Virus record (IMG/VR): IMGVR_UViG_3300031853_000001
Coordinates: 1 to 64,000 of that record
Source: a virus
Taxonomy: Duplodnaviria; Caudoviricetes
DNA length: 64,000 nucleotides
Strand: one strand, 5' to 3'
Of this stretch, positions 42,413 to 63,821 are shown piece by piece (the first letter of the stretch is position 1; each line of letters begins with the position of its first letter). The notes beneath the pieces are model-generated. The model was not told where the DNA came from. It saw only the letters and a program-made list of their open reading frames with translations, and ran no database searches. A program made the translations under genes and the position numbers.

Positions 42413-43102
42413 CATAAAATTAACACGGCGAAAGCCGTGTTAATTTTTTAAACATAGTAGTTAGTCGCCACTAACATTAAGACTGTGTAAATTAGACTAT
42501 CCGGGCAGTCTAATTTACCTTCATTTAACAAAATCAAATTAACAAATAATTTATTTTAACTACGTTGATTTTTAACTTGACTTATGATACAATAAAGATG
42601 ATGGGAGGATGTTAAGATTTTGTTAAGAAGAAGGTGAAATTTATGTTAAAAATAGGTAAAAATATCTCTGGGACACGTCTGCCTTTGCGCTGCCTGCCTC
42701 GGCTTCGGTCAGCCAGTGTTGGTGGGCAGCTGGAAGTTCCTCGGCTTCGGCCGCGAGTGGGAGCTGGGAGCTGGATGGAGCTGAGAGCTGAATAAAGCTG
42801 AAGCTGGGAGCTGAAACACAAAAATGGGAGCTGGATTTTAATTAACATAAAATTAACATTGGAGCTGCAAATTTAACATAAAATTAACATTTAAATGAAG
42901 CTGAAATTAATAAAAATTAATAACTAGAAATACAACAAATATAGACAGATTAGCGCTTATAAACACTTTAAAAAGCAAAACGTAGACGTTAAATCTATGT
43001 TATTTATAGCATACGGATATTCAAATTAACTTATCATTAACTTGACTACTCATATAATCTATGCTATAATATATACAATAAAAGAAAGAGAGAGAACGCG
43101 CT

Positions 43103-43489
43103 ATGACTAACAACAAAATGACCTTCACCCCTCAACAGATTGATGCCGCTTACATTAACTCTCTTGTTGACCTTGTGAATGCTTGCCGTTACCGTCACAT
43201 CGAAATTGACAAGGTGCGCTACTACCAAAATGGTTGGCATGTAACCTTCGCGGAACATCCGCACGCAGATGCTGTCTGTCATGATGGAAGTTATGGTAGT
43301 CCTTGCTACATGGCGAATTATCTTAGTCAAGGGTATGACAACGACTGGTCGCGCTCTGGCTCTTGGGAGACTATTGGCTTCCCTTGGGACTATGGTGATG
43401 TTAGCGTCCATACCGCGGAAGAACTCACGTTCTATCTATGGTCTTTGAACAATGGTAAAACTCCATGGGAAGAAAACGAGGACTGTTAG
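43103..43489 (+). CDS. Hypothetical protein, 128 aa
   Basis: Own promoter; stop codon lies in a terminator hairpin. Confidence 0.85.
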   Translation: MTNNKMTFTPQQIDAAYINSLVDLVNACRYRHIEIDKVRYYQNGWHVTFAEHPHADAVCHDGSYGSPCYMANYLSQGYDNDWSRSGSWETIGFPWDYGDVSVHTAEELTFYLWSLNNGKTPWEENEDC

Positions 43490-43566
43490 TCCTCGTTCTT
43501 CTTATTTTACCTTTGTTAATTTAATTTCCCGGCTATTTTATTTTACCTTCCATTAATATTACCTTT

Positions 43567-43749
43567 TTAATAGAAAAAATGAGGGATAATGAAAATTAAA
43601 ATAAAACTTAAAATCATAATTATAATTTCAATTATGCATTTACCACAAATTTTTATAAACTTTTCAATATCCCGAAATGTCAATCTATAAAACCACATTT
43701 TAATTTTATATTGAAAACTTTTTCTTCTTTTATAATCTTGATAGCGCAT
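43567..43749 (-). CDS. Small membrane protein, 60 aa
   Basis: AAGGAGGGAGG RBS; hydrophobic C-terminus. Confidence 0.7.
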   Translation of the reverse strand: MRYQDYKRRKSFQYKIKMWFYRLTFRDIEKFIKICGKCIIEIIIMILSFILIFIIPHFFY

Positions 43750-43980
43750 CCCGAAACCTCCCTCCTTTTATACATATATTATACTATAAACTAATTTCAA
43801 AATCAAATCATTTTTAAAGTTTTTATTATGACATTTTTTAGACAATCCCAAAACTTATATAATTTAAATCTATGTAAATTATAACATACGGATATTTTAT
43901 TTTACATAAAAATAACTTGACATTTCATTTTAAATTTGCTATAATAATTCCAGAAACAAACGAAAGGGGATTTTCCTAAA

Positions 43981-44121
43981 ATGACAGTTTATGCTATTGA
44001 TTGTAATGGTTTTCAAGGTTCTTCCTATTATCGCACGCGAGAAGAGGCGCAAAATGCGGCAAATTGGCGCACGTATTGCACAGGAATGAAATGGGATGTT
44101 AAGGAAATATTAATTCCTTAA
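43981..44121 (+). CDS. Small protein, 46 aa (MTVYAIDCNGFQGSSYY...), paralog of 45849-45992
   Basis: Below the ORF-track cutoff; promoter and RBS present; clear paralog. Confidence 0.8.
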   Translation: MTVYAIDCNGFQGSSYYRTREEAQNAANWRTYCTGMKWDVKEILIP

Positions 44122-44283
44122 TTTCAATTTCAAATTGCGAAACATAAAAAGTTTCGCAATTTCATTTTAAATTCCTGTTAATTAAACCTCACGTATAATC
44201 TAATTAATAATCATTTAACTTGACATTTCATTTTAATTTTGATATAATATATCCAGAAAAAGAACAGAGGAGGAAATCCTAAA

Positions 44284-44412
44284 ATGCGCGAATGGAATGA
44301 ATTGACAGATGAGGAGCAGGTTCGGCTTTGGTGGGAATACGATGCTAATTCAGGAGAAGAAATTTCATTTTCTGAATTTGACGAAATGATGCAAGGGATT
44401 TACTTTGAGTAA
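44284..44412 (+). CDS. Very acidic small protein, 42 aa (MREWNELTDEEQVRLWWEYD...)
   Basis: GAGGAGG RBS, own promoter, terminator hairpin around the stop. Confidence 0.8.
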   Translation: MREWNELTDEEQVRLWWEYDANSGEEISFSEFDEMMQGIYFE

Positions 44413-44546
44413 ATCCCTTAATTTCATTTTTCTTTTACTTTTATTTTCCTAATTTTTAATTTAATTTTCAAATCCCAAAATTAAATCTATGTAAATTAAA
44501 TAACCCGGTTTCTGTAATTAACATAATTTCAAAATAAAACCGTATG

Positions 44547-44735
44547 TTAAACATACGGCGCGAAAATATTTTCCAAATCCCGAATCTCATGAGGATAATA
44601 CAGCACGTAGATTTCCATATAGCCAGGCGCGGGCCAATGCTCTTCACACTCATAATCAAAACCGTAATCATCCAACTGTTCAAACAGGCCGTCCAGCGCG
44701 GAGTTCAGTTCAACGGCATAGCACTTTCTTTTCAT
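44547..44735 (-). CDS. Acidic hypothetical protein, 62 aa
   Basis: Minus-strand promoter near 44795 and GAGG RBS. Confidence 0.8.
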   Translation of the reverse strand: MKRKCYAVELNSALDGLFEQLDDYGFDYECEEHWPAPGYMEIYVLYYPHEIRDLENIFAPYV

Positions 44736-44916
44736 TTCAAATTACCTCGCTCTCTTAATTTCTGTAATCATTATAGCACAGCAATCCCGAAATGTCAAGT
44801 TAAACAATTGTAAAATATAATATCCGTATTTTTTATTTTACTTCTTTTTAACTTGACATTTTAAAATAATTTTGGTATAATAATTATAGAAAAAAGAGAG
44901 AGGAGAAAATCCCAAA

Positions 44917-45180
44917 ATGAAGAAGATTATTGTTATCACTCTGATTATCGCTCTGTGCCTGACTCTTACCGCGTGCCAGGTCGGCAACCGCAAAATCGGT
45001 TTTGATACTACGCAGACTTTCCATTGGGCCATCATTCAGATGGGAAATGGTGAACTAATTGAAGGCCCAGTGGATTCGTGGCGAGATTTTAACGAATCTG
45101 ACGCAGTCCAGATTACTATTAATGGTATTACCTATCTGACGCATTACTCCAACGCCATCCTCGCAACCGAGAAGCCTTAA
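44917..45180 (+). CDS. Putative lipoprotein, 87 aa
   Basis: MKK, hydrophobic stretch and LTAC lipobox. Confidence 0.75.
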   Translation: MKKIIVITLIIALCLTLTACQVGNRKIGFDTTQTFHWAIIQMGNGELIEGPVDSWRDFNESDAVQITINGITYLTHYSNAILATEKP

Positions 45181-45304
45181 CGGTTTCTCGGTTATTTTTA
45201 TATTAATTATATAATCCGGAATTTATATTTTACTATTATTTAACTTGACTTATTAAAATATATTTGATATACTATATATAAGATAAAGAGAGGAGATTAC
45301 CACT

Positions 45305-45616
45305 ATGATGCCTATTTATGATGCCGATACTCTTCGCAAAGTTTCTTCTGATGCTCGTCTTGCCGAGTTCAATTATGTTAGAGATAACTATGTTCCAAAA
45401 GCACTTTGCAAAATAAATGAAGCTAATTTCACCGCAGCCAATGCCGGGCGGAGTTTTTCCCATGAAAAACTTAATTTGCTTGTTATGGGTCTTGCTACAG
45501 AAGAATCGCAAAACTATCTTAGAATTGGACTAAAAACAGAATTAGAAACATTAGGACTAAAAGTTGATATAGTCATGCGGCCAAATGGCATGATGGAAAT
45601 TACTTGTAGATGGTAA
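45305..45616 (+). CDS. Hypothetical protein, 103 aa
   Basis: Promoter, GAGGAG RBS, terminator. Confidence 0.8.
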   Translation: MMPIYDADTLRKVSSDARLAEFNYVRDNYVPKALCKINEANFTAANAGRSFSHEKLNLLVMGLATEESQNYLRIGLKTELETLGLKVDIVMRPNGMMEITCRW

Positions 45617-45848
45617 AATTGCGGGTAACCGCAATTTCATTTTAATTTTATGTAAATTAGATTAAACGGGAATTTTATTTTACTTTCCTTTAACTTTTGT
45701 CAATTTCATTTTGTTTTATACATCCTAAAACTAATGTTAATTTCATATTAAATCTCCTATTTCTTATTGACAATTTTATTTTCTTTTGGTATAATATAAT
45801 TGTTCCAAAGAGAACAACAATCAATCCCGAAAGAGAGGCAATTTCAAA

Positions 45849-45992
45849 ATGTATAAGTTCGCAATCTTTTGTATCACTGGTTTGCAGGGCTCTTCCTATT
45901 ATTCTACCCATGAAGAGGCGCTTAACGCCGCGCGTTTCCGTACTAATTGCACCGGATTGCCGTGGTATGTTTCCGCAATAAAGGTTAGGTAA
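45849..45992 (+). CDS. Small protein, 47 aa (MYKFAIFCITGLQGSSYY...), paralog of 43981-44121
   Basis: Shares QGSSYY.T.EEA.NAA..RT.CTG..W.V; promoter and terminator present. Confidence 0.8.
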   Translation: MYKFAIFCITGLQGSSYYSTHEEALNAARFRTNCTGLPWYVSAIKVR

Positions 45993-46124
45993 CTAACCTT
46001 TTTAATTTTATGTTAATTACATAACCCGGATAATCTAATTTCCTTACTTTTAACACTCAAACTTATTGACAATACATATTATATGTGCTATAATAAATAC
46101 ATCAAAAGCAAGGAGGTTCCAATC

Positions 46125-46310
46125 ATGAACATGCCGCTTTACTCCATTGATTACATCGTAACCGCTACCAATACCGCCACTTATCAGTATTTTTATACTA
46201 CTCACGACGCGCGCAACTTTCTTTGGAATAATCGTAACAAAATTCATGATGTAATTATTTATCTGTTTGGTTCTATGACAGAAATCAGCGAAAAAGATTT
46301 GCGGGATTAA
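46125..46310 (+). CDS. Hypothetical protein, 61 aa
   Basis: AAGGAGG RBS, promoter, terminator. Confidence 0.8.
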   Translation: MNMPLYSIDYIVTATNTATYQYFYTTHDARNFLWNNRNKIHDVIIYLFGSMTEISEKDLRD

Positions 46311-46439
46311 CCCGCATTTCTTTTTTATCGTTATGTTAATTAAATTGTCCGGGCTACCTAATTTACACAAATATAACTTGCATTTATGCCAATTCTATGC
46401 TATAATATATACAAGATAAAGAAAGGATGGTAATACACA

Positions 46440-46622
46440 ATGACGGTTAAAGAATTGATGGAAGTTTTTGAGTGCTATGAAAAACTGTGGGGCGAAAAGT
46501 TCACATCTCTGCCGATTGTGACAGTTGGCCACGATGCAAACGGTGAACGACAGTATAACATTCCAGTAACTGATTACACCTTCAATATTGAAGATAACGA
46601 CTTTACCCTTTGGGACAATTAA
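46440..46622 (+). CDS. Hypothetical protein, 60 aa (MTVKEL...)
   Basis: Promoter, RBS, terminator. Confidence 0.8.
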   Translation: MTVKELMEVFECYEKLWGEKFTSLPIVTVGHDANGERQYNIPVTDYTFNIEDNDFTLWDN

Positions 46623-46788
46623 GCGCGCAAGCGCTTAATTTTTTAATATAATGTAAATTACAATGTCCGGGTCTTTTAATTTATATATATTTTACATTCC
46701 ATAGATATTTTTTACTATTGACAACTATTAAAAAATATGATAAAATAGTCTTGTAGTTGAGGGAATAAAGCATAAAGGAGTGTATCAT

Positions 46789-46998
46789 ATGTATACTGTC
46801 TATGATTGCAAGGATGAATACCGCGCCACTTTTTACTCTAAAGAGGAAGCTTTTTCCGCCGCAATTAATCATTGCGTTACGGAAGGACTTTATGTTAATA
46901 ATGTCCTCTCCGACATTGAAGATTCCTTCACAATCATTTACCTTGACCCGGATGATAATAGCCCGCAAGAAATCGCGATTTATAAGGTGTGCGAATAG
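46789..46998 (+). CDS. Acidic hypothetical protein, 69 aa
   Basis: AAGGAG RBS, promoter, terminator. Confidence 0.8.
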   Translation: MYTVYDCKDEYRATFYSKEEAFSAAINHCVTEGLYVNNVLSDIEDSFTIIYLDPDDNSPQEIAIYKVCE

Positions 46999-47135
46999 CA
47001 CACCTTTTATTATTAAATAGATGTTAAATAAAATACCCGGCCAGTCTATTTTCCAAACCTTTAACATACATACCTATTGCAAAAAGTCTGTGCATATGCT
47101 ATAATATACTCAACAAAGCAAAGGAGGGCACCACA

Positions 47136-47276
47136 ATGAAGTACATCGTAGTGAACATGACCACCAAAGAGCAGATTATTTGCACGACTCGCCGCGAGGG
47201 CCGCGACCTTGCAGAACGTCTGAGCATTGAAACCACTTGTCTCTGGTTTCTGATGATTGTCCCCGAAGGCGCATAA
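47136..47276 (+). CDS. Small protein, 46 aa (MKYIVVNMTTKEQ...)
   Basis: AAGGAGG RBS; stop in hairpin loop. Confidence 0.78.
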   Translation: MKYIVVNMTTKEQIICTTRREGRDLAERLSIETTCLWFLMIVPEGA

Positions 47277-47662
47277 GCGCCTTTTTTATTATATCTGTGT
47301 AAATTAAATTACCCGGCACTTATAGTTTACGATTATTTAACTTGACTTCTTTTATGCTCTATGCTATAATAGACTTGTCGAAAGGAAGAAAGGAGTGTTG
47401 AGAGATGGAGCCACCCTACTAATGCAAGGGGTAATGTCTGACATGGCGGGCGTAGGACATCCCCACTTACAAAGGGAACCGACCCGCGGCAGGAGTGGCG
47501 CACTGACCGCGAACGAGCCAACCGCGCGGAGTAGCTAACCGCGCGGCTTTTATTATACTAATGTTAATTATAATTCCCGGATACTCTAATTTACCATCTT
47601 TTAACTTGACAGTTTTAGCGCCACATGCTATAATAAGGTATCAAATGAAGGAGGTAACCAAC

Positions 47663-47839: not shown

Positions 47840-47961
47840 TCGGCCTTTTATATTTATGTTAATTAAAATACCCGGAATTTCTAAATAACGAACAATTAAC
47901 TTGCTTTTTCTTAGTTCCTATGCTATAATATACTTACAAAAAGGAAAGCGAGGTCAATCTT

Positions 47962-48210: not shown

Positions 48211-48335
48211 GCCATTTTCTTATTTTAATTATATGTAAATTAAACTATCCGGATATTCTATTTTACCAATAGTTAACTTGACAATTATCTTTCTATGTAT
48301 TATAATATATACAGAAATTGAGAGGAGGCAACCCC

Positions 48336-48554: not shown

Positions 48555-48713
48555 TCCTCCACTTTTTTATTAAGTATATGTAAATTAGAATATACGGACA
48601 TTCTAATATACGTAATTTTAACATAGAAAAACTATTGACAAATCAATTTTTTGTGGTATAATAAAATAAAAAACGGTTCAACGACAACGACAACATGAAA
48701 GGAGATTTTCACA

Positions 48714-49004: not shown

Positions 49005-49384
49005 GCCACGGCCTATTCTTTTTTTAAGCGTATGTAAATTAGAATACCCGGACAATCTAATTTACTCAAATTTAACTTGACTTCTATCGCGTTATATGTT
49101 AAGATAGTATAGAGTAGGTAAGGGAGGTGAGTGTTATGATTCAGTTAAGGAGCGATTAAAGTATGGTTAAGCGCGTATTAAAATCGTGTAAAGTGGCCTG
49201 TGTATCAGGTCTATTAAGCGTGCGTAAAATCTATGTAAGCTTGAGTCCCATGGCTGAAGTTTATTTAACATACTCTTTAATTCCAGCTGGAAGCTGGAAG
49301 CTGGAGCTGGAATTAACATACTTTTAACTTGACATGAAGCTGGGAAGCTGGTATAATATAATCAAAAGAAAGGAGCTGTGAGCT

Positions 49385-49787: not shown

Positions 49788-49911
49788 CCGCGTTTTTTTT
49801 ATAATTGTGTTAAATAAAATGCACGGTAATTGTATTTTACATACTTTTAACTTGACTTATCCTCTAAAATTTGATATACTATATTCAGAAAAGGAAAGGG
49901 GATATAAAAGA

Positions 49912-50352: not shown

Positions 50353-50478
50353 CCGCCTTTTCTTTTTTTGAAATTATGTTAATTAAAATTCCCGGGTATT
50401 CAAATTAACAAAAAATTTACTTGACTTTTTATAGAAATTATGGTATTATATTTATAGAAAGTGAAGGGAGAAAGTCAA

Positions 50479-50601
50479 ATGAAAGTTACTTACACAATGA
50501 ATATAAAACTTAGTCCGTGGCTTGTAATTTTTGCTCCATTTGTCGCTTTTTTCTTTGTGTGTTGGGTTAATATAAAATTTCTTTACAAAAACTTAACTTG
50601 A
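50479..50601 (+). CDS. Small membrane peptide, 40 aa
   Basis: Promoter at 50421, GGAG RBS, one hydrophobic segment. Confidence 0.6.
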   Translation: MKVTYTMNIKLSPWLVIFAPFVAFFFVCWVNIKFLYKNLT

Positions 50602-50674
50602 CTTTCCCTCCCAAATCTGCTATAATAATTCCAGAAAGTGAAGGAAAACACTAAACCAGAAAGGACTAACACCT

Positions 50675-51076
50675 ATGAGTAAGGCATCTCTTGAAACCGA
50701 AATCCGCAACAACGTCCTCCAGACCATCATCGACGCGGTGAATCCCATTAGCGACATTCTCCCGATTAGTGCCAGCGAACTCGCCCTCCCCATTGTGGAT
50801 AGTGAGGGCAACGAAAAGTTCGCCGTTATCAAGGTGAGTATTCCTCGCGGTGAGCGCGACGGTAACGGCGGTTATATCCCCTTTGATGGCTACGCCGCCG
50901 CCGAAGATTGGAAACTTGTGCTTGCCGAGCGCGCAGATAAGGCGGCAAAGCGTAAGGAAAAGGCAGAGCGTGCCGAAAAGGAAAAGGAACGCAAGCGCGC
51001 GGCGCGCAAGGTTGTAAAAGACCTTAACACTGTAGGATTTAAGGCGCTTGTATCCCAGCCGATTGAGGGTGAGTAA
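50675..51076 (+). CDS. Hypothetical protein with K/A/E/R-rich helical tail (family B), 133 aa
   Basis: Biased codons; resembles 56688-57023 and 60539-60862. Confidence 0.85.
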   Translation: MSKASLETEIRNNVLQTIIDAVNPISDILPISASELALPIVDSEGNEKFAVIKVSIPRGERDGNGGYIPFDGYAAAEDWKLVLAERADKAAKRKEKAERAEKEKERKRAARKVVKDLNTVGFKALVSQPIEGE

Positions 51077-51200
51077 TCACCCTCTTTTTTAATTATATGT
51101 AAATTATACTAACCGGATACTTTATTTTACTCAATCTTAACTTGACTTCTGCGTATGAATAGTGTATAATATACGCAGAAAGACAGAAAGGAAGAACATT

Positions 51201-51356: not shown

Positions 51357-51422
51357 TCTTAACTTGACTTCTACGTGTAGATGGTATATACTATATATAG
51401 AAAATGAAGGGAGATTATAAAT

Positions 51423-52187: not shown

Positions 52188-52440
52188 TTCTCCCAATTTC
52201 ATTTTAAATCAATGTAAACTAAAATACCCGTCAATTTCAATTTACAAACCTTTAACCTAACCGGGTATTGACATTTCATTTCAATTCTGATATAATAAAT
52301 ACAGTTGAGGGCGAGGAAAGAAAATCCTAAAACTGCCCAAAACTTCACAAAGAATTAACTTGACATTATAAGCACAACGTGCTATAATGAATATACAAAA
52401 AAGAGAAGGAAACTCTTAAAAACCAGAAAGGGTAATAATT

Positions 52441-52779
52441 ATGAAGAAGACCACCATCACCGCTCTGTATAACTACTTTGTGAAGAACGACGACACCATT
52501 GACCTGTCTGTTGTGGTTGAGGACATCCGCGCCGAGTATGAGAAGTCCGCTGCGAAGGTCAGCGCGAAGATGGACGCCTACGAGCAGGCAAAGCCCATTG
52601 TGTTCGCCGCAATTGCGGATGCTCCTCTGACTGTGAAGGACATCTTCACCGCTTGCGAGGACAAACTGCCCGAGGGCTTCACGCCCCACAAGATTCAGTA
52701 TGCTCTCCTGCATTACTGGATGGACGAGGTTGACAAGATTGACAATGGCAAGGGCCCTTTCACCTATAAGGTAAAGTGA
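52441..52779 (+). CDS. Putative winged-helix DNA-binding protein (family A), 112 aa
   Basis: LTVKDIF...PEGFTPHKIQYAL...EVDKIDNGKGPFTY; paralog of 53421 and 55784. Confidence 0.65.
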   Translation: MKKTTITALYNYFVKNDDTIDLSVVVEDIRAEYEKSAAKVSAKMDAYEQAKPIVFAAIADAPLTVKDIFTACEDKLPEGFTPHKIQYALLHYWMDEVDKIDNGKGPFTYKVK

Positions 52780-53062
52780 GCATAAGAAAATGGGCGAAAG
52801 CCCATTTTCTTTTAAGCTAATGTAAATTACACTGTCCGGGTTTTGTATTTTACTAACTCTTAACACGCAAAACTCTTGACTTTTTGTGGGAGTTCTGCTA
52901 TAATATATCTACAAGGTGAGGGAAACAAGAGCGCGCGGCAGATAGCAGCGTTGTGGTAAGACAAAACCAGTCACAATTGATCGGCCACCCAAATCCTTGT
53001 GACAAACTTTTAACTTGACATTATATCAAATCCATGGTATAATAAATACGTTGAAAGGACAT

Positions 53063-53138
53063 GGGAGTGTAGCTCAGTTGGAAGAGCACCAGACTTTTAA
53101 TCTGGGTGTCGCGGGTTCGATCCCCGCCACTCTCACCA
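53063..53138 (+). tRNA. tRNA-Lys (anticodon UUU) with encoded CCA
   Basis: Acceptor GGGAGTG/CACTCTC, D arm GCTC/GAGC, anticodon arm CCAGA-CTTTTAA-TCTGG, GGTTCGATCC T loop, ACCA end; own promoter at 53015. Confidence 0.95.
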
Positions 53139-53420
53139 CTTCACGAAATCTTAACTTGACAAGGTTGGGAAATCGTGATATAATAAGGATGTTGAAGGGC
53201 AGAGAAACAGGGGATAGCCGCTTCAACCACGCAGGCGCCGCGTGAGAACTCCCCGCAACTTACGACCACCTGTTCCCAAGCGCAAACGCAGGTGTTGTTA
53301 AGAGAAACGAAAAGGAATAACTCTTAACAAACTCTTAACTTGACATTATAGCCGATTGGTGCTATAATAAATACATCAAAGGGAAGGAAAACCCAACAAA
53401 CCAGAAAGGAACACAACACT

Positions 53421-53750
53421 ATGAAGAAGAACGTTTTTGAGATGGTTGTCGCTATGGTCAATGGCCGTGAGGTTGCCGATATGGATACTCTGCGCAATGA
53501 AATCAATGCCGAGTATGAGCGCATGAATGCCAAGCGGCAGGCTAATCAGGATGTTTACGCCACCGCGCATGATGTTCTGATGAATGCTCTGACGGATAAG
53601 GAACAGACATCCAAGGAACTGTTTGAGAGGAATGAGTGGCCCGATGGCTTCACGCAGGGCAAGCTCAATTACGCCCTGCGGGCTATGTGGGCGGACGAGG
53701 TTCGCAAGGTTGACAACGGCAAGAGCGCGAACACCTACACGCGTAAGTAA
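53421..53750 (+). CDS. Putative winged-helix DNA-binding protein (family A), 109 aa
   Basis: QTSKELF...PDGFTQGKLNYAL...EVRKVDNGKSANTY. Confidence 0.65.
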   Translation: MKKNVFEMVVAMVNGREVADMDTLRNEINAEYERMNAKRQANQDVYATAHDVLMNALTDKEQTSKELFERNEWPDGFTQGKLNYALRAMWADEVRKVDNGKSANTYTRK

Positions 53751-53892
53751 GAAAAGCCCTTCGGGGCTTTTCTTTTTTTATTAAGGATAAGTTAATTAAA
53801 ATGCCCGGTCAATTTAATTAATAATCATTTAACTTGACAAATAGTTTTATTAATGATATACTAAATATAACAAAAGAAAGGGGCTTACACTA

Positions 53893-54351: not shown

Positions 54352-54518
54352 AGTAGTGGTTCGCCGCTACTTTAATTTTATATTAATTTCATTTTCCGGG
54401 CAGTCTAATTTACGCATACTTAACATAAAAACCTATTGACAAAAACCCTAACCCCATGTTATAATATACCCACAAGGTGAAGGGAAACACCAGACAAACC
54501 AGAAAGGAACTTTGAACT

Positions 54519-55511
54519 ATGGCGAATAAAAAGATGTATTGCGTTGTTGACACCGAAACCGCAACCTTGCCTTATGCTGATGAAATTGCGCAGGGTGACC
54601 CCGAGCGCAAAAAGAAGATTGCGATTGCAAAGCCTCTTGTATATGACATTGGTTGGACTATCTGTGACCGTGCCGGAGTTATCCACGACCGCAAGCAGTT
54701 TTTGATTGCCGAAACTTTTTCAGTTCCTGCTGTGTTTAATACCGCCTATTATGCAGAAAAGCGCCCTATTTATCTTGAGATGTTGAAAAAGGGCGAAACC
54801 ACTATTAAACCTTGGAATGAAGTCATGGAAATTTTTATGGCTGACCTTGAAAAAGTTGATTCTGTCGGGGCTTTTAATGCTATGTTTGATTTTAAGAAAG
54901 CAATTCCCTTTACTGAATTGTATGTTAATATGCTCTATTCCCCCGATTATTTCAAGTGGGAAGAAATCCAGCGTAACTCTTGCCGTCGAATTGCTTTTGA
55001 AAAGCCTTCTAACGATAAGAATCCCGATTTTGATGCCGAACATTTTTTGTTCCGTGGTCGTCTGTATGACCTCTTTGATTTGTGGGGACTTGCAACCACT
55101 TATCTTTTGAATAATGTTACTTATAAGAATAACTGTTTAAAATATGGAATGCTGACTAATAGTGGCGTTTATTTTAAAACCAGTGCTGAAACCAGTTACC
55201 GCTATTTGTGCGATAAGTACGATTTTATGGAAAGTCATACCGCATTGGATGATGCAGAAATTGAATCCTATATTCTGCACAAGATTGCGCAAAAACATGC
55301 CGTGTCTAATGGAATTAAATATTTTCCTTTCCGTGAACTTGGTTATACTTATGACCATTGTATGCGGCGCAAAGTCCCTAACATTGAGGAATGCGAAACG
55401 GTTTTTAACGCTATGAAAACTTACGTTGATTCTAAAGATGAAGAATCCCGATATATTAAGGGATTGTTAAAGAAAATGGAAATGCTTTTGGAGTATATGG
55501 AAGGGCGCTAA
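54519..55511 (+). CDS. DEDDh-family 3'-5' exonuclease, 330 aa
   Basis: ExoI VVDTET, ExoII AFNAMFD, ExoIII HTALDD. Confidence 0.85.
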   Translation: MANKKMYCVVDTETATLPYADEIAQGDPERKKKIAIAKPLVYDIGWTICDRAGVIHDRKQFLIAETFSVPAVFNTAYYAEKRPIYLEMLKKGETTIKPWNEVMEIFMADLEKVDSVGAFNAMFDFKKAIPFTELYVNMLYSPDYFKWEEIQRNSCRRIAFEKPSNDKNPDFDAEHFLFRGRLYDLFDLWGLATTYLLNNVTYKNNCLKYGMLTNSGVYFKTSAETSYRYLCDKYDFMESHTALDDAEIESYILHKIAQKHAVSNGIKYFPFRELGYTYDHCMRRKVPNIEECETVFNAMKTYVDSKDEESRYIKGLLKKMEMLLEYMEGR

Positions 55512-55783
55512 GCCCTTTCTTTTTATTAAACCAACGTTAATTAAAAATCCCGGACAGTGTATTTTACTTACGTTTAACACAAAAAAGTATTGACAAAATA
55601 CGGAAATTCTGATATACTATTCTTGTCGAAAGGGGAAAGGGAAACCGCGTCGTGCGCGTCCCGTGGCGGCGGAATCCCTCCCAATCGCAACAAAATCTTA
55701 ACTTGACATTACATCACAAACGTGATATAATGAATACACAACAGAGGAAGGAAAACCTCAACAAAACCAGAAAGGGAAATACT

Positions 55784-56185
55784 ATGAAGAACACTCTGAC
55801 TCGCGTTGACGCTCTGAACTACGCTATTGCCGCCGTGACCAACTCCACCGAAGTGCTGACTAATCCCGATGAAATCGTGGACGTGCTGACCAAGATTCGC
55901 GACCAGATTGCGAAGCCCCGCAAGACCAGCGACGAAGCCAAGGCGAAGGCCAAGGACAAGCGTGCCAAGGCTCGCACCGCTCTGATGGAGCAGGTTCTGC
56001 CCATCATCCGCGAAGCCGTTGCTGATGGCGGTACCGCCAAGGAAATTTACGAGCGCTGTGCTAACGCTCTGCCCGAGGACTTCACCGTCGCCAAGGTACA
56101 GTATATTCTGCTCCATGAGATGGCGGGCGAGGTTGTAAAGACCGAAGCCAAGGGCAAGCCCAACGTCTACACGATGAAGGGTTAA
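55784..56185 (+). CDS. Putative winged-helix DNA-binding protein (family A), 133 aa
   Basis: Start MKNTLTR after RBS; GTAKEIY...PEDFTVAKVQYIL...EVVKTEAKGKPNVY. Confidence 0.65.
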   Translation: MKNTLTRVDALNYAIAAVTNSTEVLTNPDEIVDVLTKIRDQIAKPRKTSDEAKAKAKDKRAKARTALMEQVLPIIREAVADGGTAKEIYERCANALPEDFTVAKVQYILLHEMAGEVVKTEAKGKPNVYTMKG

Positions 56186-56325
56186 TAAAGAGGGCGAAAG
56201 CCCTCTTTTAATTTAATTAAATGTTAATTACAGTACCCGGCATTTTTAATTAACCAAATATTTACTTGACTTTATTCAATTTCTATGTTATAATATATAT
56301 AGAAAAAAGAAAGGGGATACCGATT

Positions 56326-56538: not shown

Positions 56539-56687
56539 CGAGGTTAATACCTCGTTAACTATAGCATCCGGTCATTTTAATTTACTCACAATTAACAGAA
56601 AAAAGTATTGACAAAATCCCAAATTTCTGCTATACTATATACATCAAGTGAAGGAAAACACTTACAAACCAGAAAGGGAAAAACACT

Positions 56688-57023
56688 ATGAAGATTTCCA
56701 AGGCTATCGTCGATTCCAACATCCGCACCGCTATCTTTTCCGCTCTGAACGTCGCTAACATCGAAGGCTTCCACAAGATTAACGACCGTCAGTATGGTTG
56801 CATCGTCGAGGATGTAAACGGCGAACGCCGTTACGCTCGCGTCGGTGTTATCGTCGCAGAGCAGCGGGAGGATGTTACCGCGGACGAACTGATGGCGTCC
56901 GAAATCGCGGACTATGAGGACAAGCAGGCAAAGAAGGCCGAGCGTGCCGCCGCTCGTGCGGAAAAGGCCGCCAAGGATAGGGCGAAGCGTGAAGCCGCCA
57001 AGAAAGAAAAGGAAGGGGATTAA
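56688..57023 (+). CDS. Hypothetical protein with K/A/E/R-rich tail (family B), 111 aa
   Basis: Promoter, shared leader, stop in terminator loop. Confidence 0.85.
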   Translation: MKISKAIVDSNIRTAIFSALNVANIEGFHKINDRQYGCIVEDVNGERRYARVGVIVAEQREDVTADELMASEIADYEDKQAKKAERAAARAEKAAKDRAKREAAKKEKEGD

Positions 57024-57166
57024 CCCTTCCTTTTTAATTATATGTTAATTATATCGCCCGGCTATTTTTATTTACACTCTTTTAACTTGACAAATTTGCC
57101 TATATAGTATATACTATATACATGAAGTGAAGGAAAACACTTACAAACCAGAAAGGAAAAAGAAGA

Positions 57167-57844
57167 ATGTTTAAGTATGAGCAGGAGATTCAGCAGGCTA
57201 ACAAGATTTATCAGGAGCAGTATCAGATTTGCAAGGATGCTTGCAAAGACATGCTTGGAGAGGAAGATTTTATTTATTCCGAAGATGAAGCAATGTGTCG
57301 TTTTATCGCATTTGGTGATGGAGAGTGCATTATTGAAGGATATGAAAACGAAAAGGGAAGTCTTTCGTCTAACGCACGTATAGCCATTAAAAAGTATTAT
57401 GACTTTGTTGAAGGCGAAGGTTATGTTCGTGTAAAAGAGTCCAATCTCTTTTCTATTGAAAGTCTTTTCCCTGCCGCGTCGCTTCCTGTTAAGGAATTTG
57501 ATTTTGCTAATGGCGAAGCCGATTGTCCCGGCCTTTATTTCCTTGGCATGATTGGCCGCAATCCTAATGGTGAAGATTTTTATCTTGTGAAAATCGGTTG
57601 CGCTAAAAACATTAAAGAACGTGTAAATCAATATAGATCTTACAACCCTATGATTTATCATAATAATATTATTTATTGCCCTAATATTGATTTGAGAGAA
57701 GCAGAAAAACAGGCACACCGTGCGCTTGCCGACCTTGCGATTGCTCGCGCTGCTCATGCCATGGAATGGTTTTATGTTGATAAAGAAACTTATTTTGCTC
57801 TGTGTGAAAATCCTTGGCAATATATTTTTGAGGAAGAGGCGTAA
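57167..57844 (+). CDS. Protein with C-terminal GIY-YIG-like (T5orf172/MUG113-type) domain, 225 aa
   Basis: GLYFLG...VKIG...IKERVNQY...E..AH...EWF. Confidence 0.7.
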   Translation: MFKYEQEIQQANKIYQEQYQICKDACKDMLGEEDFIYSEDEAMCRFIAFGDGECIIEGYENEKGSLSSNARIAIKKYYDFVEGEGYVRVKESNLFSIESLFPAASLPVKEFDFANGEADCPGLYFLGMIGRNPNGEDFYLVKIGCAKNIKERVNQYRSYNPMIYHNNIIYCPNIDLREAEKQAHRALADLAIARAAHAMEWFYVDKETYFALCENPWQYIFEEEA

Positions 57845-57963
57845 GCCTTTTCTTTTTAAAAGAAAAGTTAATTAAAATAACCGGACAATTTAAATAACAC
57901 GCTTTTAACTTGACATTTTTCTATATTTCTGTTATACTATATCTAAAGAAAGGGGAATTGTCA

Positions 57964-58161: not shown

Positions 58162-58294
58162 AAGAACGATTATTCGTTCTTTTAAATTTCTGTAAACTAT
58201 ATCGCCCGGTAATTTTAGTTAATTAAATCTTAACTTGACTTCTATTATTTTACATGATATAATAATACCATCAAGTGAAGGGAGACTAAATAAT

Positions 58295-58504: not shown

Positions 58505-58579
58505 CCGAATCTTAACTTGACTTTTCCAGCGAACAGGATTATAATATATACAGAAAGAAACGAAAGGGGATTTCACAGT

Positions 58580-58825: not shown

Positions 58826-58831
58826 TAATTT

Positions 58832-59017
58832 ATGAATTGTCTTAAATGTGGTCATACCTTTGCCGGTCCTGATTGTTATAGCACTGAACAGGATGGCGAT
58901 TCTTATACCAACTACATAAGTGCCTATTGCCCTTGGTGCCGCAAGTGGTTTGAATGGATGGAGATTTTCACACTTTCGGAAATCACCCCACCAGAAGAAA
59001 TGGAAGGAGAAGAATAA
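58832..59017 (+). CDS. Zn-ribbon protein, 61 aa
   Basis: CLKC...CPWC..WFEW.E.FT. Confidence 0.78.
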   Translation: MNCLKCGHTFAGPDCYSTEQDGDSYTNYISAYCPWCRKWFEWMEIFTLSEITPPEEMEGEE

Positions 59018-59020
59018 ATT

Positions 59021-59221
59021 ATGAAGTGTCCGAATTGCGGAAATGACGTTTTCTTTGATGAAGTAGTAGACACCGAATATTATACTGGTACACACATTGA
59101 TATTGGTTATGGCACGTGTTCAAAGTGTCATAAAGATTGGGGATGGAGTGAGGTTTTCACTTATTCTAAAGATATTGACATCGAAGAGATGCCGCCCTTG
59201 CCTAATAACGACCATCTTTGA
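59021..59221 (+). CDS. Zn-ribbon protein, tandem paralog of 58832-59017, 66 aa
   Basis: CPNC...CSKC..WGW.E.FT. Confidence 0.78.
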   Translation: MKCPNCGNDVFFDEVVDTEYYTGTHIDIGYGTCSKCHKDWGWSEVFTYSKDIDIEEMPPLPNNDHL

Positions 59222-59303
59222 TGGTCGTTAATTTTATATTAACTACAATTCCCGGACAATTTAATTTACACAACTATAAAAAAATAAGCGCCTAAGCGCT
59301 TAT

Positions 59304-59831
59304 TCACCATCTTTCCGTAACTTCCTCAGACATAGCATAATCAATCAAGCAAGCCTTTCCGTCACGGATTCCCCAATTATAAGAATGAATATCTTTATTA
59401 AATTCTGTCACCCAATTAAATTCATCTTCGGTCAGATAATAATCAATATAATGCCCCTTATGCAACCTACCACCTACATGCTTAATTCGCGGCATAATCA
59501 TAAAATAATAACCCTGATATTCAATAAGCGTAGGTTCAGCCAATAAGTAATCATAGCCCGCTTCTTTGGCTTTCATAAAAGCCTTGTGTTCATCTGCGCA
59601 ACCACCACATTCATAAGCGCATTCTTTATCATAATCCCACTTAATAACATAATCAGAGGTAATCAACGCGATTCACGCAACACCATAATTAAAAAGAACT
59701 TTCCTATGCTTATAAGCATTATAACGCCAAACCGCCTCTTGCGCATCGTATTTATCAGTCAAACAATTACAAATATAAGGGAAAATGTCCTTCAAAAACT
59801 TTGCGGCGCGAATACGATAATCAGACTTCAT
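59304..59831 (-). pseudogene. Minimal protein-kinase-like gene interrupted by one in-frame TGA at 59675-59673
   Basis: Promoter and RBS lead to ATG 59831, in frame with the tracked ORF. Reads YGVA*IALITSDYVIKW...DIHSYNWG...LIDYA. Confidence 0.65.
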
Positions 59832-59958
59832 ATTGATTAACCCCTTTCGTTTTTCTAATATAATTATACAGATAATCCGCTATTTTGTCAAGTTAAAATT
59901 ATGTAAACTACATAATACGTGTACTTTAATTTACACAACTTTAAAATAAAATCCTAAC

Positions 59959-60192
59959 TCAAAGAGTTAGGAAATAAATATTCATTACTATTAAAGCCAA
60001 CCGCATAACCACATTATTAATATGCGGCTTTGTGTGCAAATCCCATATCAAGCCCACCACATTAACAGGCAAGCCAACCCACGCGCCACGATTCCATGCG
60101 ATTATTGCGATTGTGTTAAGTATGGCAAAAATTGCCACTAAATCCATTCGCTCAAACTGATAAGGCGTGGTGATACTGAAAAACTTTTTCAT
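59959..60192 (-). CDS. Small membrane protein, 77 aa
   Basis: Hydrophobic segments; ATGA overlap with the upstream gene. Confidence 0.75.
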   Translation of the reverse strand: MKKFFSITTPYQFERMDLVAIFAILNTIAIIAWNRGAWVGLPVNVVGLIWDLHTKPHINNVVMRLALIVMNIYFLTL

Positions 60193-60413
60193 TCTTCATA
60201 CCTCGTTAAATCATTTTGTGAACGTTGAAAATCAGCATATCCATTCATATAAAAACTTTTATATACTCTAACTGTATAGAATACATAATTAGTTTTTTCA
60301 AACCTAACATCAACTTCTTCAAGTGGGTCAATCTCAATTTTGACGATATAACCATAAATCGGTTTTCCATCTACATTACTAATAAAAGATACCTTATCGC
60401 CAATATTAAACAT
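60189..60413 (-). CDS. Small SH3/KOW-like protein, 74 aa
   Basis: MFNIGDKVSF...GYIVKI start; promoter near 60470. Confidence 0.7.
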   Translation of the reverse strand: MFNIGDKVSFISNVDGKPIYGYIVKIEIDPLEEVDVRFEKTNYVFYTVRVYKSFYMNGYADFQRSQNDLTRYEE

Positions 60414-60538
60414 ATTTTATTTACTCCCTTCATTTGATACTCTAATTATATACTATCCGCGCGCGATTGTCAAGTTAAATAATAATAAATTAAATTACCC
60501 GGGCATTTTAATTAACATACAATTAAAAAAAAGAAGGC

Positions 60539-60862
60539 TTACGCCTTCTTCTCCTTGGCCTTGGCTACCTTAGCAGCCTTCTCAGCTTCCTTGGCCGCCT
60601 TGTTATCAGCCTTGACCCTCTTCTCGGCTTCCCACTCCTGCGCGGCCTCAAAGGGGTCAAACGCCTTGGATACCTTGGTGTCCTTGTAAGCCTTGGACTT
60701 AACAGAAACTTCCGTCCAAACTTCCTGACCGTCAACGACTTGTAGGATAGCAAAGGAACCGTCCGCGAACTTCACGGCCTCATTCTCCATCAGAGAAGGC
60801 ATGATCGCGGCAATAGTCATCTGGCGAGCGGTGGACTTGATTTCGTTAGCATTCATAGACAT
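60539..60862 (-). CDS. Hypothetical protein with K/A/E-rich tail (family B), 107 aa
   Basis: FDPFEAAQEW matches FDGYAAAEDW in 50675-51076. Confidence 0.85.
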   Translation of the reverse strand: MSMNANEIKSTARQMTIAAIMPSLMENEAVKFADGSFAILQVVDGQEVWTEVSVKSKAYKDTKVSKAFDPFEAAQEWEAEKRVKADNKAAKEAEKAAKVAKAKEKKA

Positions 60863-61093
60863 AGTGTAAACCCTTTCTCGTTTTTAGGAGTTTCGTTCTC
60901 CTCTTGATGTATCCATTATAGCAGAGTTTCAGCGGAATGTCAAGTTAAAACTTTGTTAAGTCTTGCTTATCCGTCCTTGCCACTCTTGCCCCTTGGATTG
61001 ATTTAATTATACATCCAAATCCAAGAAAAGTCAAGTTAAACATATGTGAATTAGAAAGACCGGGTAGTTTAAATAACATAAAATTAAAGTGGG

Positions 61094-61447
61094 CTATTCG
61101 CCCACTTTAACCCATTCCATTTCTTTCCAATCATATTCATACAAGCCCACTTCATCCCACGGCAATTCATAGCCAAAATAAGAATAAATCAGTTTTCTAA
61201 CTTCGTGAGAAACAATTTTCTTTACACGAATCTTTTCGCATCTCTCGAAAGCATATTTAATAGCGTATAGACCCTGTTCTACTTCATTCAAGAAAATCCA
61301 AATATACGCACCATTTTTCCCAAAAAAATCATAAGCATTAAAAAATTCGTTCAACAAATCAAAGGCTTTGCTCTCATATTCTTCACATTCTTCCAAATTA
61401 TCAAACTCGGTATCATCATAAGCAACATAAGTAATAATTTCACGCAT
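61094..61447 (-). CDS. Hypothetical protein, 117 aa
   Basis: Promoter near 61505, GGGAG RBS; YVAYDDTEF...EC..YE start. Confidence 0.8.
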   Translation of the reverse strand: MREIITYVAYDDTEFDNLEECEEYESKAFDLLNEFFNAYDFFGKNGAYIWIFLNEVEQGLYAIKYAFERCEKIRVKKIVSHEVRKLIYSYFGYELPWDEVGLYEYDWKEMEWVKVGE

Positions 61448-61622
61448 AACTCATATCTCCCTTGCTTTTCTACATATATAATATCATAAACCCAACCCAA
61501 AGTCAAGTTAAATAATTATAAATTAAAATATCCGGGCACCCTAATTAACACACAATTAACTTGCTTTTTCTTTATTGATATGCTATACTATATACATCAA
61601 ATGAAAGAGAGGTAACACTTCT

Positions 61623-62339
61623 ATGATTGACAAACGCAAGCATTATTATTTGGTTCTTGACACCGAAACCGCGAACGGTTTAGACGATGCTCTTGTATAT
61701 GATTTGGGCGGTTGTGTCGTTGATAAGTCCGGCATAATCTATGCACAATTTTCTTTCACTATTCGCGACATTTTTGTCTATGAGCGCGAAATGATGCGTA
61801 CCGCCTACTATGCGGATAAAATTCCTTCTTATGTGAAGGAACACCATGAGGGCACGCGCAAGATGGTAAGTTTTTACGATGCCCGGCAATATGTTCTCGC
61901 GTTGATGCACGAATACAACATTACAGATGTTTGCGCATATAATGTCAACTTTGACAGGAACGCGCTAAACACAACTCAAAGATGGCTCACCAAGTCCAAG
62001 TATAGGTATTTCTTCCCGCGCAATACTAACTTTATCTGTATTTGGAATATGGCTTGCCAAACCCTTTGCCAGCGCAAAACTTATAAAGAGTTTTGTGAAG
62101 CTAACAACTTTACAAGCAATCGCAAAGGCGCGCCCGATGCCCGCAATTATAGCACAAGTGCGGAAACGGTTTATAGGTATTTGATACTCAATGCCGAATA
62201 TGAAGAGGAACACAAAGGCATTGATGATGTAAAAATTGAAACTTACATTTTTGCCCGTTGTATCGCCGCGCATAAGGCTTTCCCGTATGGCAAAGGAATA
62301 AGACGGAATTGTTGGATGGACGTTAAGAGAACGGTTTAA
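61623..62339 (+). CDS. DEDDh-family 3'-5' exonuclease, paralog of 54519-55511, 238 aa
   Basis: VLDTET, AYNVNFD, HKGIDD; shared SAET.YRYL. Confidence 0.85.
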   Translation: MIDKRKHYYLVLDTETANGLDDALVYDLGGCVVDKSGIIYAQFSFTIRDIFVYEREMMRTAYYADKIPSYVKEHHEGTRKMVSFYDARQYVLALMHEYNITDVCAYNVNFDRNALNTTQRWLTKSKYRYFFPRNTNFICIWNMACQTLCQRKTYKEFCEANNFTSNRKGAPDARNYSTSAETVYRYLILNAEYEEEHKGIDDVKIETYIFARCIAAHKAFPYGKGIRRNCWMDVKRTV

Positions 62340-62428
62340 CCGTTCTCTTTTTTATTAAACATATGTAAACTATAATGCCCGGATATTTTAATTTACATAT
62401 AATTAAAATTAAAGAGGAAAACTCCTCT

Positions 62429-63112
62429 TTAAATAATATTTAATGCCATTAATATTTTTTTCCACAAAGGTGCTAAATGAAAACGCACACTATAATTATA
62501 ATGCTGTTGTATAAGTTTCTTTTCCTCTTCATAGCTTTGAACAAGTTGCAAATAAGATTGATTTATCTTTTTTAATTCTTCAATTTCCTTTTCTTGTTTT
62601 TTATTAATAGTTGCATAATTAATAACTTGTTCAGTCATTGTTTTATCATGCTTATATATTTTATCATATTCATTTTTATTTATATAAAAACGATTATCAT
62701 TTTTTGTATTTTGAGCTAATTTAATAAGTTCATCCATTCTATTAACATCAAAAATTTGCCAAGGATTTTTACACAATTCAAAATATATAGGTTCACTAAC
62801 ATAATACCATTCGCGGCTATAAGAAGGAAGCCCTATTGCAAGCAACTCCAACATTAAATGAGCATAAGTTTCCATGTCATAACCTTTGGGAATAGGTAAT
62901 TTTTTAGTTAAGATATGATGCTCTTGATGAAATAGTTGGCAACTATGGGTTTTATATTGTTTAATACGTCTTGACAAATCTCCGCCCCAGCCAATTTTAA
63001 CAGAACATAACAATTCTCCATCCGGAGTAAGACCACGCTCTCCGAAAAAATATATACCACTATCATGATTATCACATGTAATATTATTGTTACTTAAAAC
63101 TTTCAATGCCAT
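62429..63112 (-). CDS. GIY-YIG-like (T5orf172-type) domain plus coiled coil, 227 aa
   Basis: GIYFFG...VKIG...LSRRIKQY...E..AH...EWY...LCKNPWQ; related to 57167-57844. Confidence 0.7.
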   Translation of the reverse strand: MALKVLSNNNITCDNHDSGIYFFGERGLTPDGELLCSVKIGWGGDLSRRIKQYKTHSCQLFHQEHHILTKKLPIPKGYDMETYAHLMLELLAIGLPSYSREWYYVSEPIYFELCKNPWQIFDVNRMDELIKLAQNTKNDNRFYINKNEYDKIYKHDKTMTEQVINYATINKKQEKEIEELKKINQSYLQLVQSYEEEKKLIQQHYNYSVRFHLAPLWKKILMALNII

Positions 63113-63821
63113 ATTTTTTATTTCCTTTCTTTTGATACCTCAATTATAATACATAAATCATGTTATGTCAAGTTAAATCATTGTAAATCAAACTGTCCGG
63201 GCACTTTATTTTACAAAAAGTCAACAATTAGAAATCACTTTACCATGCTACTATGCTACCATAGCAGTATATTATCACTTTACTATGCTAAAGTGGTAGC
63301 ACTTTACTATACTACTATAGAAAACCTACTATTTGACTTTACTATAAAATTATGTTATACTATTATTAGAGAGGGAGAGGAGGAGCCCTCCTCAGTATAT
63401 TATTAGACAGATAAGCTGGACCGTAGGAGCTGGAATTTTATAGAAGCTGGAAAAGCTGGAACTTCTAATCAGACAACGAGCTGGAAATGTCAAGTATTTG
63501 ACAAGTGAAATTCCAGTTAGCTGGATATCAAGTATTAAACAAGATAAATTTAATTTTGTTAGCGAGTGATGTCAAATATTTGACAAGTTGGAAATCTGAT
63601 CAGTTGAAGCAGGAGCTGGAGAAGTTGGGCGTCTGGCCAAATTATATCAGTTAGACAAATTTTTTATATATATAAAAATATCCCATTTTATTATACTATA
63701 AATTATTTATTTTGTCAAATAAATAATTATTTTTTTTAATTTAAAAAATAAATTAAAATAATTTTAAAATAATAAAAATACTTTTTATTTGAGAAAATAA
63801 AAATAAAAGGAGTTTGAGAAA

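Follow-up and report, generated by a model that had tools for sequence, protein, structure and literature searches.

Two groups of described systems bear most closely on the element reported here. The first comprises the promoter-early stem-loop (PeSL) cassettes of the T4-type phages RB49/phi1, T4/PST, and KVP40/nt-1 (Arbiol et al. 2010, PMC2839356; Comeau et al. 2014, PMC4122927). The second comprises regulators that act from upstream of a promoter: the phi29 protein p4, which contacts upstream DNA together with the C-terminal domain of the RNA polymerase alpha subunit (alpha-CTD), represses strong early promoters by keeping the polymerase from clearing them, and class I activators can work from a range of positions upstream (PMC6524683). 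In this study, we analyzed the first 64 kb (the window) of IMGVR_UViG_3300031853_000001, a 180,932-bp IMG/VR virus record (Duplodnaviria; Caudoviricetes) that is rated 100% complete and comes from a 181-kb uncultured phage of the ruminant gut; the complete genome is referred to as G000. Between positions 42477 and 63224, the window carries an array of 39 copies of a 52-bp palindromic site (the dyad), which bound ∼38 units, each composed of a promoter, one or more genes, and a terminator. We give somewhat better than an even chance to the reading in which a symmetric factor uses the dyad as its operator or boundary site and from there contacts or blocks RNA polymerase at immediate-early promoters.

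In both the PeSL system and the array, modules composed of a terminator, an AT-rich upstream region, and a strong sigma-70-type early promoter are repeated, and these modules are concentrated in a hyperplastic region ahead of small ORFans. The two systems differ in what is conserved. The PeSL stem-loop is the terminator itself and takes a variable position relative to the promoter (five subclasses), whereas the terminators of the array are separate, variable hairpins, and the conserved element is an additional 52-bp palindrome that sits in a fixed helical register upstream of the -35 box and is conserved even where no promoter is present. Our literature searches turned up no account of PeSL-like joints carrying a conserved, phased palindrome. 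An earlier reading of the window, made from its letters alone (the sequence-only reading), had called the array not recognizable as a described element. This statement needs qualifying, since the exchange of array units behaves like that of the published PeSL cassettes.

A 52-bp dyad confined to one region

To define the site, we used the pattern GTWAATTA-N6-CCGG-N6-TAATTWAC with at most 3 mismatches, which retrieved exactly 39 matches with cores from 42487 to 63214; dinucleotide shuffles gave an expectation of 0.03 matches for the same pattern. The complete 180,932-bp genome contains no matches beyond these 39, all of which fall within the 21 kb of the array. The copies listed by the sequence-only reading were thereby recovered one for one, and its observation that the structural module is free of them extends to the rest of the genome. 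When a symmetrized 52-bp position weight matrix (PWM) is used instead, the 39 sites score 38.6 to 57.8 bits, the best other position in the genome reaches 6.1 bits, and the maximum in Markov-1 simulated genomes is 3.5 bits. As such, the site set is all-or-none. Related metagenomic phages contribute at least 542 further nonredundant family sites, always clustered in arrays.

The site logo reads TTAA-N5-T-GTWAATTA-N-A-N-T-N-Y-CCGG-N-N-A-N-T-N-TAWTTWAC-N6-TTAAC. The first formula for the site, in which the boxes were separated by unconstrained 6-bp spacers, was right about the outer TTAA boxes (present in 36 to 39 of the 39 sites) and wrong about the spacers: A10 is found in 39 of 39 sites and T23 in 37 of 39, and T12 and A21 are favored. 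Copy 1 is, as originally described, a perfect 12-bp inverted repeat flanking ATCCGGGC. The central CG is invariant (540 of the 542 family sites). At the variable positions of the dyad, the fraction of complementary pairs equals the expectation from column frequencies, both for the 39 sites and for the 542 family sites. The sole covarying pair in both sets is 15/18 (CCGG or ACGT), which flanks the invariant CG. Because fixed bases are conserved and the pairs do not covary, the symmetry represents a conserved sequence rather than a selected fold; a hairpin, cruciform, or attC-like fold was rejected on these grounds. Conservation is also balanced between the two halves, with 24.1 bits in the distal half and 23.2 bits in the proximal half for the 299 single-promoter sites oriented by their promoter. 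When 519 family sites were classified by promoter, 55 were found to serve two promoters, and the 72 promoter-less sites scored like the promoter-bearing ones (median, 43.2 versus 44.2 and 42.7).

In terms of distribution, the exact pattern was found in 24 IMG/VR contig stretches and 69 metagenome contig stretches, and those record names that are informative suggest samples from the ruminant gut. The host is a ruminant-gut bacterium of the Gram-positive type, and the phage is unrelated to T4. Among 185,579 bacterial and archaeal genomes, there was one exact match and none in a bacterial chromosome; the lone match lies in a 3.9-kb phage-like fragment that was binned into a metagenome-assembled genome and that shows the same site-promoter layout. 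The reading of the site as a host operator was therefore rejected. A megablast search of 50,697 deposited phage genomes with a 10-kb query from the array returned no hits.

The site is kept across lineages whose genes share 65 to 75% identity, and it occupies a single region in every relative. Two distant relatives (L112, 540-7760; L114, 1000-14500), reached via a winged-helix protein described below, retain the frame TTAA...GTTAA-N5-core-N5-TTAAC-N6-TTAAC-TTGAC. Their core, however, is GGGCCGGCCC, which contains the FseI word GGCCGGCC and is 2 bp shorter. A lineage-specific core inside a constant frame would be expected of a co-evolving protein-DNA pair.

The same data bear on a possible origin of the dyad as a palindromic repeat, selfish or neutral (comparable to miniature inverted-repeat transposable elements or repetitive extragenic palindromes), or as a restriction-related sequence, that spread through intergenic DNA. 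Its high copy number and intergenic location would fit such an origin, as would the distribution of CCGG, which is underrepresented outside the array (observed/expected, 0.54), yet 32 of the 42 CCGG words within the array are dyad centers. However, spreading copies would share their variable positions, and conservation here is found at defined positions only. The register with the promoter is fixed, and the restriction to one region per relative and the retention across divergent lineages likewise argue against a repeat of this kind, which we consider extremely improbable.

Promoter coupling, candidate binders, and proposed mode of action

At a unit boundary, a terminator hairpin with its T-tail is followed by the dyad, a TTAAC box, and, directly thereafter, the -35 box; the consensus array promoter is TTAAC-TTGACA-N17-TATAAT. 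The array contains 21 perfect (12/12) TTGACA-N17-TATAAT promoters and 46 terminator-like hairpins, compared with 15.6 ± 3.2 in shuffles, which supports the promoter-gene-terminator organization proposed earlier. For 33 of the 39 sites, a promoter abuts the dyad, with the -35 box starting 1, 12 to 13, or 23 bp past the outer TTAA. Two of the remaining six have a more distant promoter, and four lie at the promoter-less convergent junctions already recognized from the sequence (43515, 44491, 59238, and 62365); the sites at 44810 and 61518 serve divergent promoters, also as first described. The sequence-only reading had concluded that the dyad tracks unit boundaries rather than promoters. It is indeed a boundary marker, but the quantized offsets show that it is also tightly coupled to promoters.

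Across 206 nonredundant family sites, the -35 offsets are 1 (n = 141), 11 to 13 (n = 29), and 22 to 24 (n = 4), followed by 36, 45 to 46, and 57 to 59. The offsets repeat every ∼11.2 bp, with the dyad center at -62.5, -73.5, or -84.5, and the dyad therefore meets the promoter on a constant side of the helix. CRP-type class I sites are centered at -61.5, -72.5, and -82.5. The array thus resembles the p4 and class I systems, in which a site with dyad symmetry likewise lies upstream of the -35 box and keeps to one face of the helix. It differs from them in that its site is longer (52 bp, with four TTAAC-type boxes and a core), is present in ∼40 copies, occurs also without a promoter, and has a binder known as candidates only.

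Each half of the dyad corresponds to the upstream element of the promoters, namely, two TTAAC-type boxes 11 bp apart at ∼-52 and ∼-41, and conservation of the site extends to -88, including the invariant CG at ∼-62. Internal promoters, which have no preceding terminator, lack the full dyad, as the sequence-only reading had noted for those with -35 boxes at 50598, 51364, 51610, 53015, and 58517; it had overlooked that the proximal half (TTWACA-N5-TTAAC-TTGACA) is kept in 11 of 12 internal promoters, these five included. An example with the half-element TTAACA-N5-TTAAC-TTGACA-N17-TATAAT is located at 53320..53368 (+), and the others have -35 boxes at 49329, 52360, 53156, and 55703 and, on the minus strand, at 60943. 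The dyad therefore consists of two mirrored upstream elements joined by a core.

A second promoter class is found elsewhere in the genome. It comprises ∼32 near-consensus promoters on the plus strand at G000 65164-174089 (loci L029-L034), in which both the dyad and the TTAAC box are absent and which instead share a conserved spacer and an extended -10 box, TTGACTTTT-N4-AAAATT-N-TG-N-TATAAT-A-N2-TAT. These promoters may constitute a delayed-early or middle class. Given that ∼32 promoters of this class do without it, the dyad marks one regulon rather than host-type promoters generally.

One alternative dispenses with a dedicated factor: the dyad would be an upstream element that is intrinsic to the promoters and works in both directions (UP-like or curved DNA), with the alpha-CTDs of host RNA polymerase as its only readers and the symmetry serving a promoter on either side after inversions. 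As in UP elements and the upstream curved DNA of Bacillus phages, the proximal half is AT rich, lies at -54 to -36, where UP subsites are located, and is placed in 11-bp steps, a phasing typical of such elements and reportedly described for SP82 promoters by McAllister and Achberger in 1989. The retention of just the proximal half at internal promoters and the 55 family sites serving two promoters also fit this explanation. UP function, however, does not account for the lineage-specific core, for the conserved distal half, or for the G/C positions that are conserved. The distal half, G1/C32, and the central CG are equally conserved in the absence of a second promoter, as are the 72 promoter-less sites; the core is swapped wholesale between lineages while the promoters remain unchanged; and the ∼32 other strong host-type promoters of the phage lack the dyad. 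Retention of the far half, the G/C positions, and the orphan copies would be expected of a symmetric sequence-specific binder but not of a UP-type element on its own. We consider the UP-like explanation unlikely.

A second alternative assigns the dyad a main job in insulation, in which the terminator would be reinforced by a protein on the full dyad serving as a roadblock or topological barrier, with promoter control being secondary. In favor of this, full dyads are restricted to unit boundaries, where they follow terminators; these boundaries include the promoter-less convergent junctions, at which the site is fully conserved, and internal promoters, where read-through is wanted, carry the half-element only. 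On the other hand, a roadblock requires no helical phasing with the downstream promoter, and each unit already has a good intrinsic terminator. Insulation as the main function therefore appears improbable.

In the operator reading that we prefer, the dyad would be a protein-recognition site marking the start or boundary of immediate-early transcription units. Its two upstream-element halves would face each other across a core with the invariant central CG, and we infer occupancy of the full dyad by a symmetric oligomer located on the same side of the helix as RNA polymerase. The likely role would be collective switching of the regulon, most plausibly in the direction of shutting off very strong early promoters by holding or blocking the polymerase, similar to phi29 p4. 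A bound dyad might also form a barrier between units, which makes insulation a close variant. Support for the operator reading comes from the conservation of both dyad halves and from the fixed helical phase relative to the core promoter. Of the two options left by the sequence-only reading, a lattice of protein-binding sites is the one favored by the absence of covariation, the equal halves, the helical phasing, the absence from bacteria, and the lineage-specific core.

Several points weigh against the operator reading. The dyad binder is represented by candidates only. Which way the effect runs is a guess, given that promoters of consensus sequence do not depend on an activator and that -62 is an unusual position for a repressor to act from. 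The UP-element zone is where the proximal half lies, and host alpha-CTD could explain part of the conservation. Furthermore, the recognition helix of the winged-helix proteins, which are the leading candidates, is nearly identical between L112, with its GGGCCGGCCC core, and relatives with AT-rich cores. With a recognition helix that is nearly invariant across core types, a winged-helix protein, if it is the binder, probably reads the shared TTAAC boxes rather than the core.

The binder is probably phage encoded, and either of two protein families of the array could supply it. The winged-helix family is represented by two short-type paralogs, one of 112 amino acids (aa) (52441..52779, +), which is a core gene in 14 of 18 related records, and one of 109 aa (53421..53750, +), as well as by a long type of 133 aa (55784..56185, +), which is present in 11 of the 18. 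An AlphaFold model of the family (pLDDT, 92) shows a long helix followed by a winged helix, and the nearest solved folds retrieved by Foldseek, with weak E values, are the winged helix-turn-helix (wHTH) domains of SmtB, Fur/PerR, and forkhead proteins. Every large related record encodes a member of the family within its array, where few other core genes are found, and the family has >1,000 metagenomic members (1,034 in the database) on contigs of up to 184 kb. A homodimer prediction scored 0.18 against a mark of 0.42 and was counted neither way. One winged-helix unit also holds extra strong promoters driving tRNA-Lys(UUU) and gene-less stretches (52905-53010, 53063-53138, and 53190-53330). These stretches may be small RNAs; an Rfam scan of the array returned nothing beyond the tRNA.

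The second candidate is a core array protein of 133 aa with a Lys/Ala/Glu-rich tail (50675..51076, +), which has paralogs of 111 aa (56688..57023, +) and 107 aa (60539..60862, -). An Atlas search with this lysine-tailed protein retrieved viral hypothetical clusters only. An HU/TF1-like binder was rejected: the PF00216 match was subthreshold (E = 0.0086) and concerned an acidic 89-aa open reading frame (ORF) unlike HU. Three small HTH_3 proteins (73733-73930, 142055-142249, and 144534-144749) have no link to the array.

Exchange of units between relatives

G001 is a 137-kb relative that is collinear with G000, with 75 to 90% identity in core genes. Its array of 34 sites is syntenic and differs from that of G000 by insertions and deletions of whole units, two translocated units, and two inverted units. 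The units shared by the two genomes are only 66 to 91% identical and have had their terminators replaced, which leaves crossovers there unresolvable by fine mapping. In pairs with ≥90% identity, 43% of 282 homology breakpoints lie ≤40 bp from a site center, compared with 17% at random, an enrichment that is partly built in, since nearly every intergenic space carries a site, and that counts nonindependent events among close pairs; both caveats add to the points weighed above against our preferred reading.

Individual crossovers were mapped for units that have a site on either side in one genome and are represented by one chimeric site in the other. PeSL cassettes show the same configuration, in that a cassette lying between two modules in one phage can be matched in a close relative by one chimeric module. 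Here, the configuration was found for L013/L019, L078/G001, L078/L108, L070/L084, and G000:48580/L108. For the last of these, at site 18, L108 carries 967 bp (three units) more than G000, and the crossover interval covers core positions 3-14. The intervals are 22-29 for L078 versus G001, 20-33 for L013 versus L019, 36-37 for L078 versus L108, and -51 to -40, inside the neighboring promoter, for L070 versus L084. The five intervals are spread over ∼90 bp, and none includes the CCGG center (15-18), at which the sequence-only reading had proposed to look for breakpoints. A sixth event, an illegitimate deletion extending from a -35 box to a terminator tail, falls outside the site.

These intervals bear directly on site-specific recombination at the dyad of the integron, lox, or shufflon kind, perhaps by an unrecognized recombinase family. 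Like integron attC/attI and lox/FRT sites, the dyads are imperfect palindromes that bound cassettes, and whole units have been gained, lost, moved, and inverted between relatives with joints at the sites. The geometry of copy 1 is lox-like, and a palindromic site would permit both excision and inversion. However, the complete genome gave no match to Phage_integrase (PF00589), for which 14 of 14 control genomes were positive, or to Resolvase (PF00239), for which the controls likewise matched, a search that covers recognized families only; the absence of a recombinase gene, first noted for the window, thus holds genome-wide for these families. There is no fixed crossover point, and in the L013/L019 event the partner centers differ (CCGTAT versus ACGGTT), a heterology that blocks lox-type exchange. 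Unlike integron cassettes, the units carry their own promoters and terminators, and in the array it is sequence that is conserved rather than the structure that covariation would preserve in attC. The lack of an integrase or resolvase and the scattered crossovers therefore rule out a lox- or integron-like mechanism for the mapped events, and for the dyad in general we regard site-specific recombination as very improbable and largely refuted. Of the integron-like option raised by the sequence-only reading, the mobility of the units survives, with joints at or beside the site, and the dedicated recombination system does not.

Shuffling of units is instead probably a by-product of the repeated joint, acting through homologous recombination. 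The joint of terminator, dyad, and promoter offers ∼100 bp of near-identical DNA in ∼40 copies, with the dyad reading the same on both strands, and general homologous recombination between joints would delete, insert, move, and invert self-sufficient units. PeSL cassettes are likewise exchanged by homologous recombination within ∼100 bp of conserved sequence. What sets the array apart is its palindromic seam, which permits inversions: two copies of the dyad are at once direct and inverted repeats, so exchange can also flip units. Inversion between two palindromes predicts a block delimited by a promoter-less site on one side and a site with divergent promoters on the other, and exactly this pattern is seen for every leftward block of G000 and G001. 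Among close pairs (≥80% identity), no recent inversion was simple enough for mapping, so the case for inversions draws on the distant comparison of G000 with G001 and on the junction pattern.

A broader proposal would join regulation and exchange in one boundary complex. A symmetric complex of the winged-helix and/or lysine-tailed proteins on the ∼40 dyads would coordinate the regulon, insulate its units, and pair dyads in a manner that promotes excision, insertion, and inversion without a canonical recombinase. We consider this proposal distinctly improbable. If it were true, the array would represent a protein-guided, homology-assisted shuffling device common to a large group of uncultured 180-kb gut and rumen phages.

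Layout of the array and its significance

The array forms a hyperplastic early region between a sigma-like gene (38957-40318, -) and a gene at 63822-65063. It opens with site 1 (core 42487; 42477..42528), which has the perfect 12-bp arms and its nearest promoter 36 bp rightward. The most common arrangement, a rightward promoter at offset 1, is found at sites 2 (42989..43040), 5 (44167..44218), 8 (45192..45243), 14 (47289..47340), 15 (47553..47604), 17 (48225..48276), 20 (49799..49850), 21 (50368..50419), 22 (51089..51140), 25 (53781..53832), 28 (56213..56264), 30 (57034..57085), 31 (57857..57908), and 32 (58182..58233). It is also found at site 4 (43864..43915), which has a leftward promoter 57 bp off; at sites 11 (46325..46376) and 16 (47848..47899), with weak -35 boxes (TTGCAT and TTGCTT, respectively); and at site 19 (49024..49075), the top-scoring copy (57.8 bits). 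Rightward promoters at offset 12 follow sites 10 (46002..46053), 13 (47013..47064), 23 (52204..52255), 24 (52812..52863), 26 (54372..54423), 27 (55526..55577), and 29 (56544..56595). The offset is 13 at site 18 (48570..48621), the chimeric joint relative to L108, and 23 at site 12 (46643..46694); at site 9 (45642..45693), the nearest promoter (45767) is 73 bp rightward.

The promoter-less convergent junctions are sites 3 (43505..43556), 6 (44481..44532), 33 (59228..59279), and 38 (62355..62406; 57.3 bits). Site 7 (44800..44851) has divergent promoters at offset 1 on each side. Site 33 forms the left edge of a four-unit leftward block that continues through sites 34 (59893..59944), 35 (60475..60526), and 36 (61036..61087), each with a leftward promoter at offset 1. 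The right edge of this block is site 37 (61508..61559), which is divergent with both promoters at offset 1 and a weak rightward -35 box (TTGCTT). Site 39 (63173..63224), with a leftward promoter at offset 1, ends the array. In unrelated units, a common 5' leader, CA-AAGTGAAGGRAAAC, occurs right after the -10 box (sites 52822, 54382, 56554, 57044, 58192, and 61518). Runs of a short GCTGGR-type repeat (GCTGGAAGCTGGGAGCTG...) are found within two units (42650-42900 and 49250-49350), in partial overlap with a small ORF.

Most array ORFs are ORFans to which neither Pfam nor PHROG assigns a function; of the 49, only ∼8 recur widely among the 18 related records. Two T5orf172 (GIY-YIG-like) proteins each occupy their own unit (57167-57844, +; 62429-63112, -); these units are found in only 5 to 6 of the 18 relatives, one is inverted in G001, and they look like mobile nuclease-type cassettes. 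In total, the genome encodes 5 GIY-YIG, 2 HNH, and 2 NUMOD1 proteins. Two paralogous core array proteins of 330 aa (54519-55511, +) and 238 aa (61623-62339, +) match phrog_20187 and, weakly, a "DNA polymerase exonuclease subunit" family. The sigma-like gene adjoins the array in all relatives; its 453-aa product matches a PHROG "sigma factor" family (E = 9e-23), has no Pfam match, and carries a C-terminal zinc-ribbon or endonuclease-VII-like stretch. Small genes immediately left of the array coincide with a local G+C peak (50% at window positions 40001-42000; genome, ∼34%), and the structural module contains a single ORF of 5,612 codons (6572-23410, -). Short palindromes are strongly avoided (observed/expected, 0.18 to 0.30 for GATC and 0.36 for CATG), and CTAG occurs once in the array, compared with 19 expected.

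In all, the array illustrates how the host-takeover genes of a large uncultured phage are arranged in standardized parts that are self-sufficient and indifferent to orientation. The idea underlying PeSL cassettes, that modular exchange runs along regulatory repeats acting as seams, is hereby extended from the T4-type phages, which infect Gram-negative hosts, to a phage lineage unrelated to them, and the array adds a palindromic seam that also allows inversions. The array further points to a putative regulator of ∼40 very strong promoters acting through one 52-bp site. If found, the binder would serve as a compact and orthogonal switch or insulator with Gram-positive-type promoters and as a handle on the immediate-early program of a widespread group of ruminant-gut phages.

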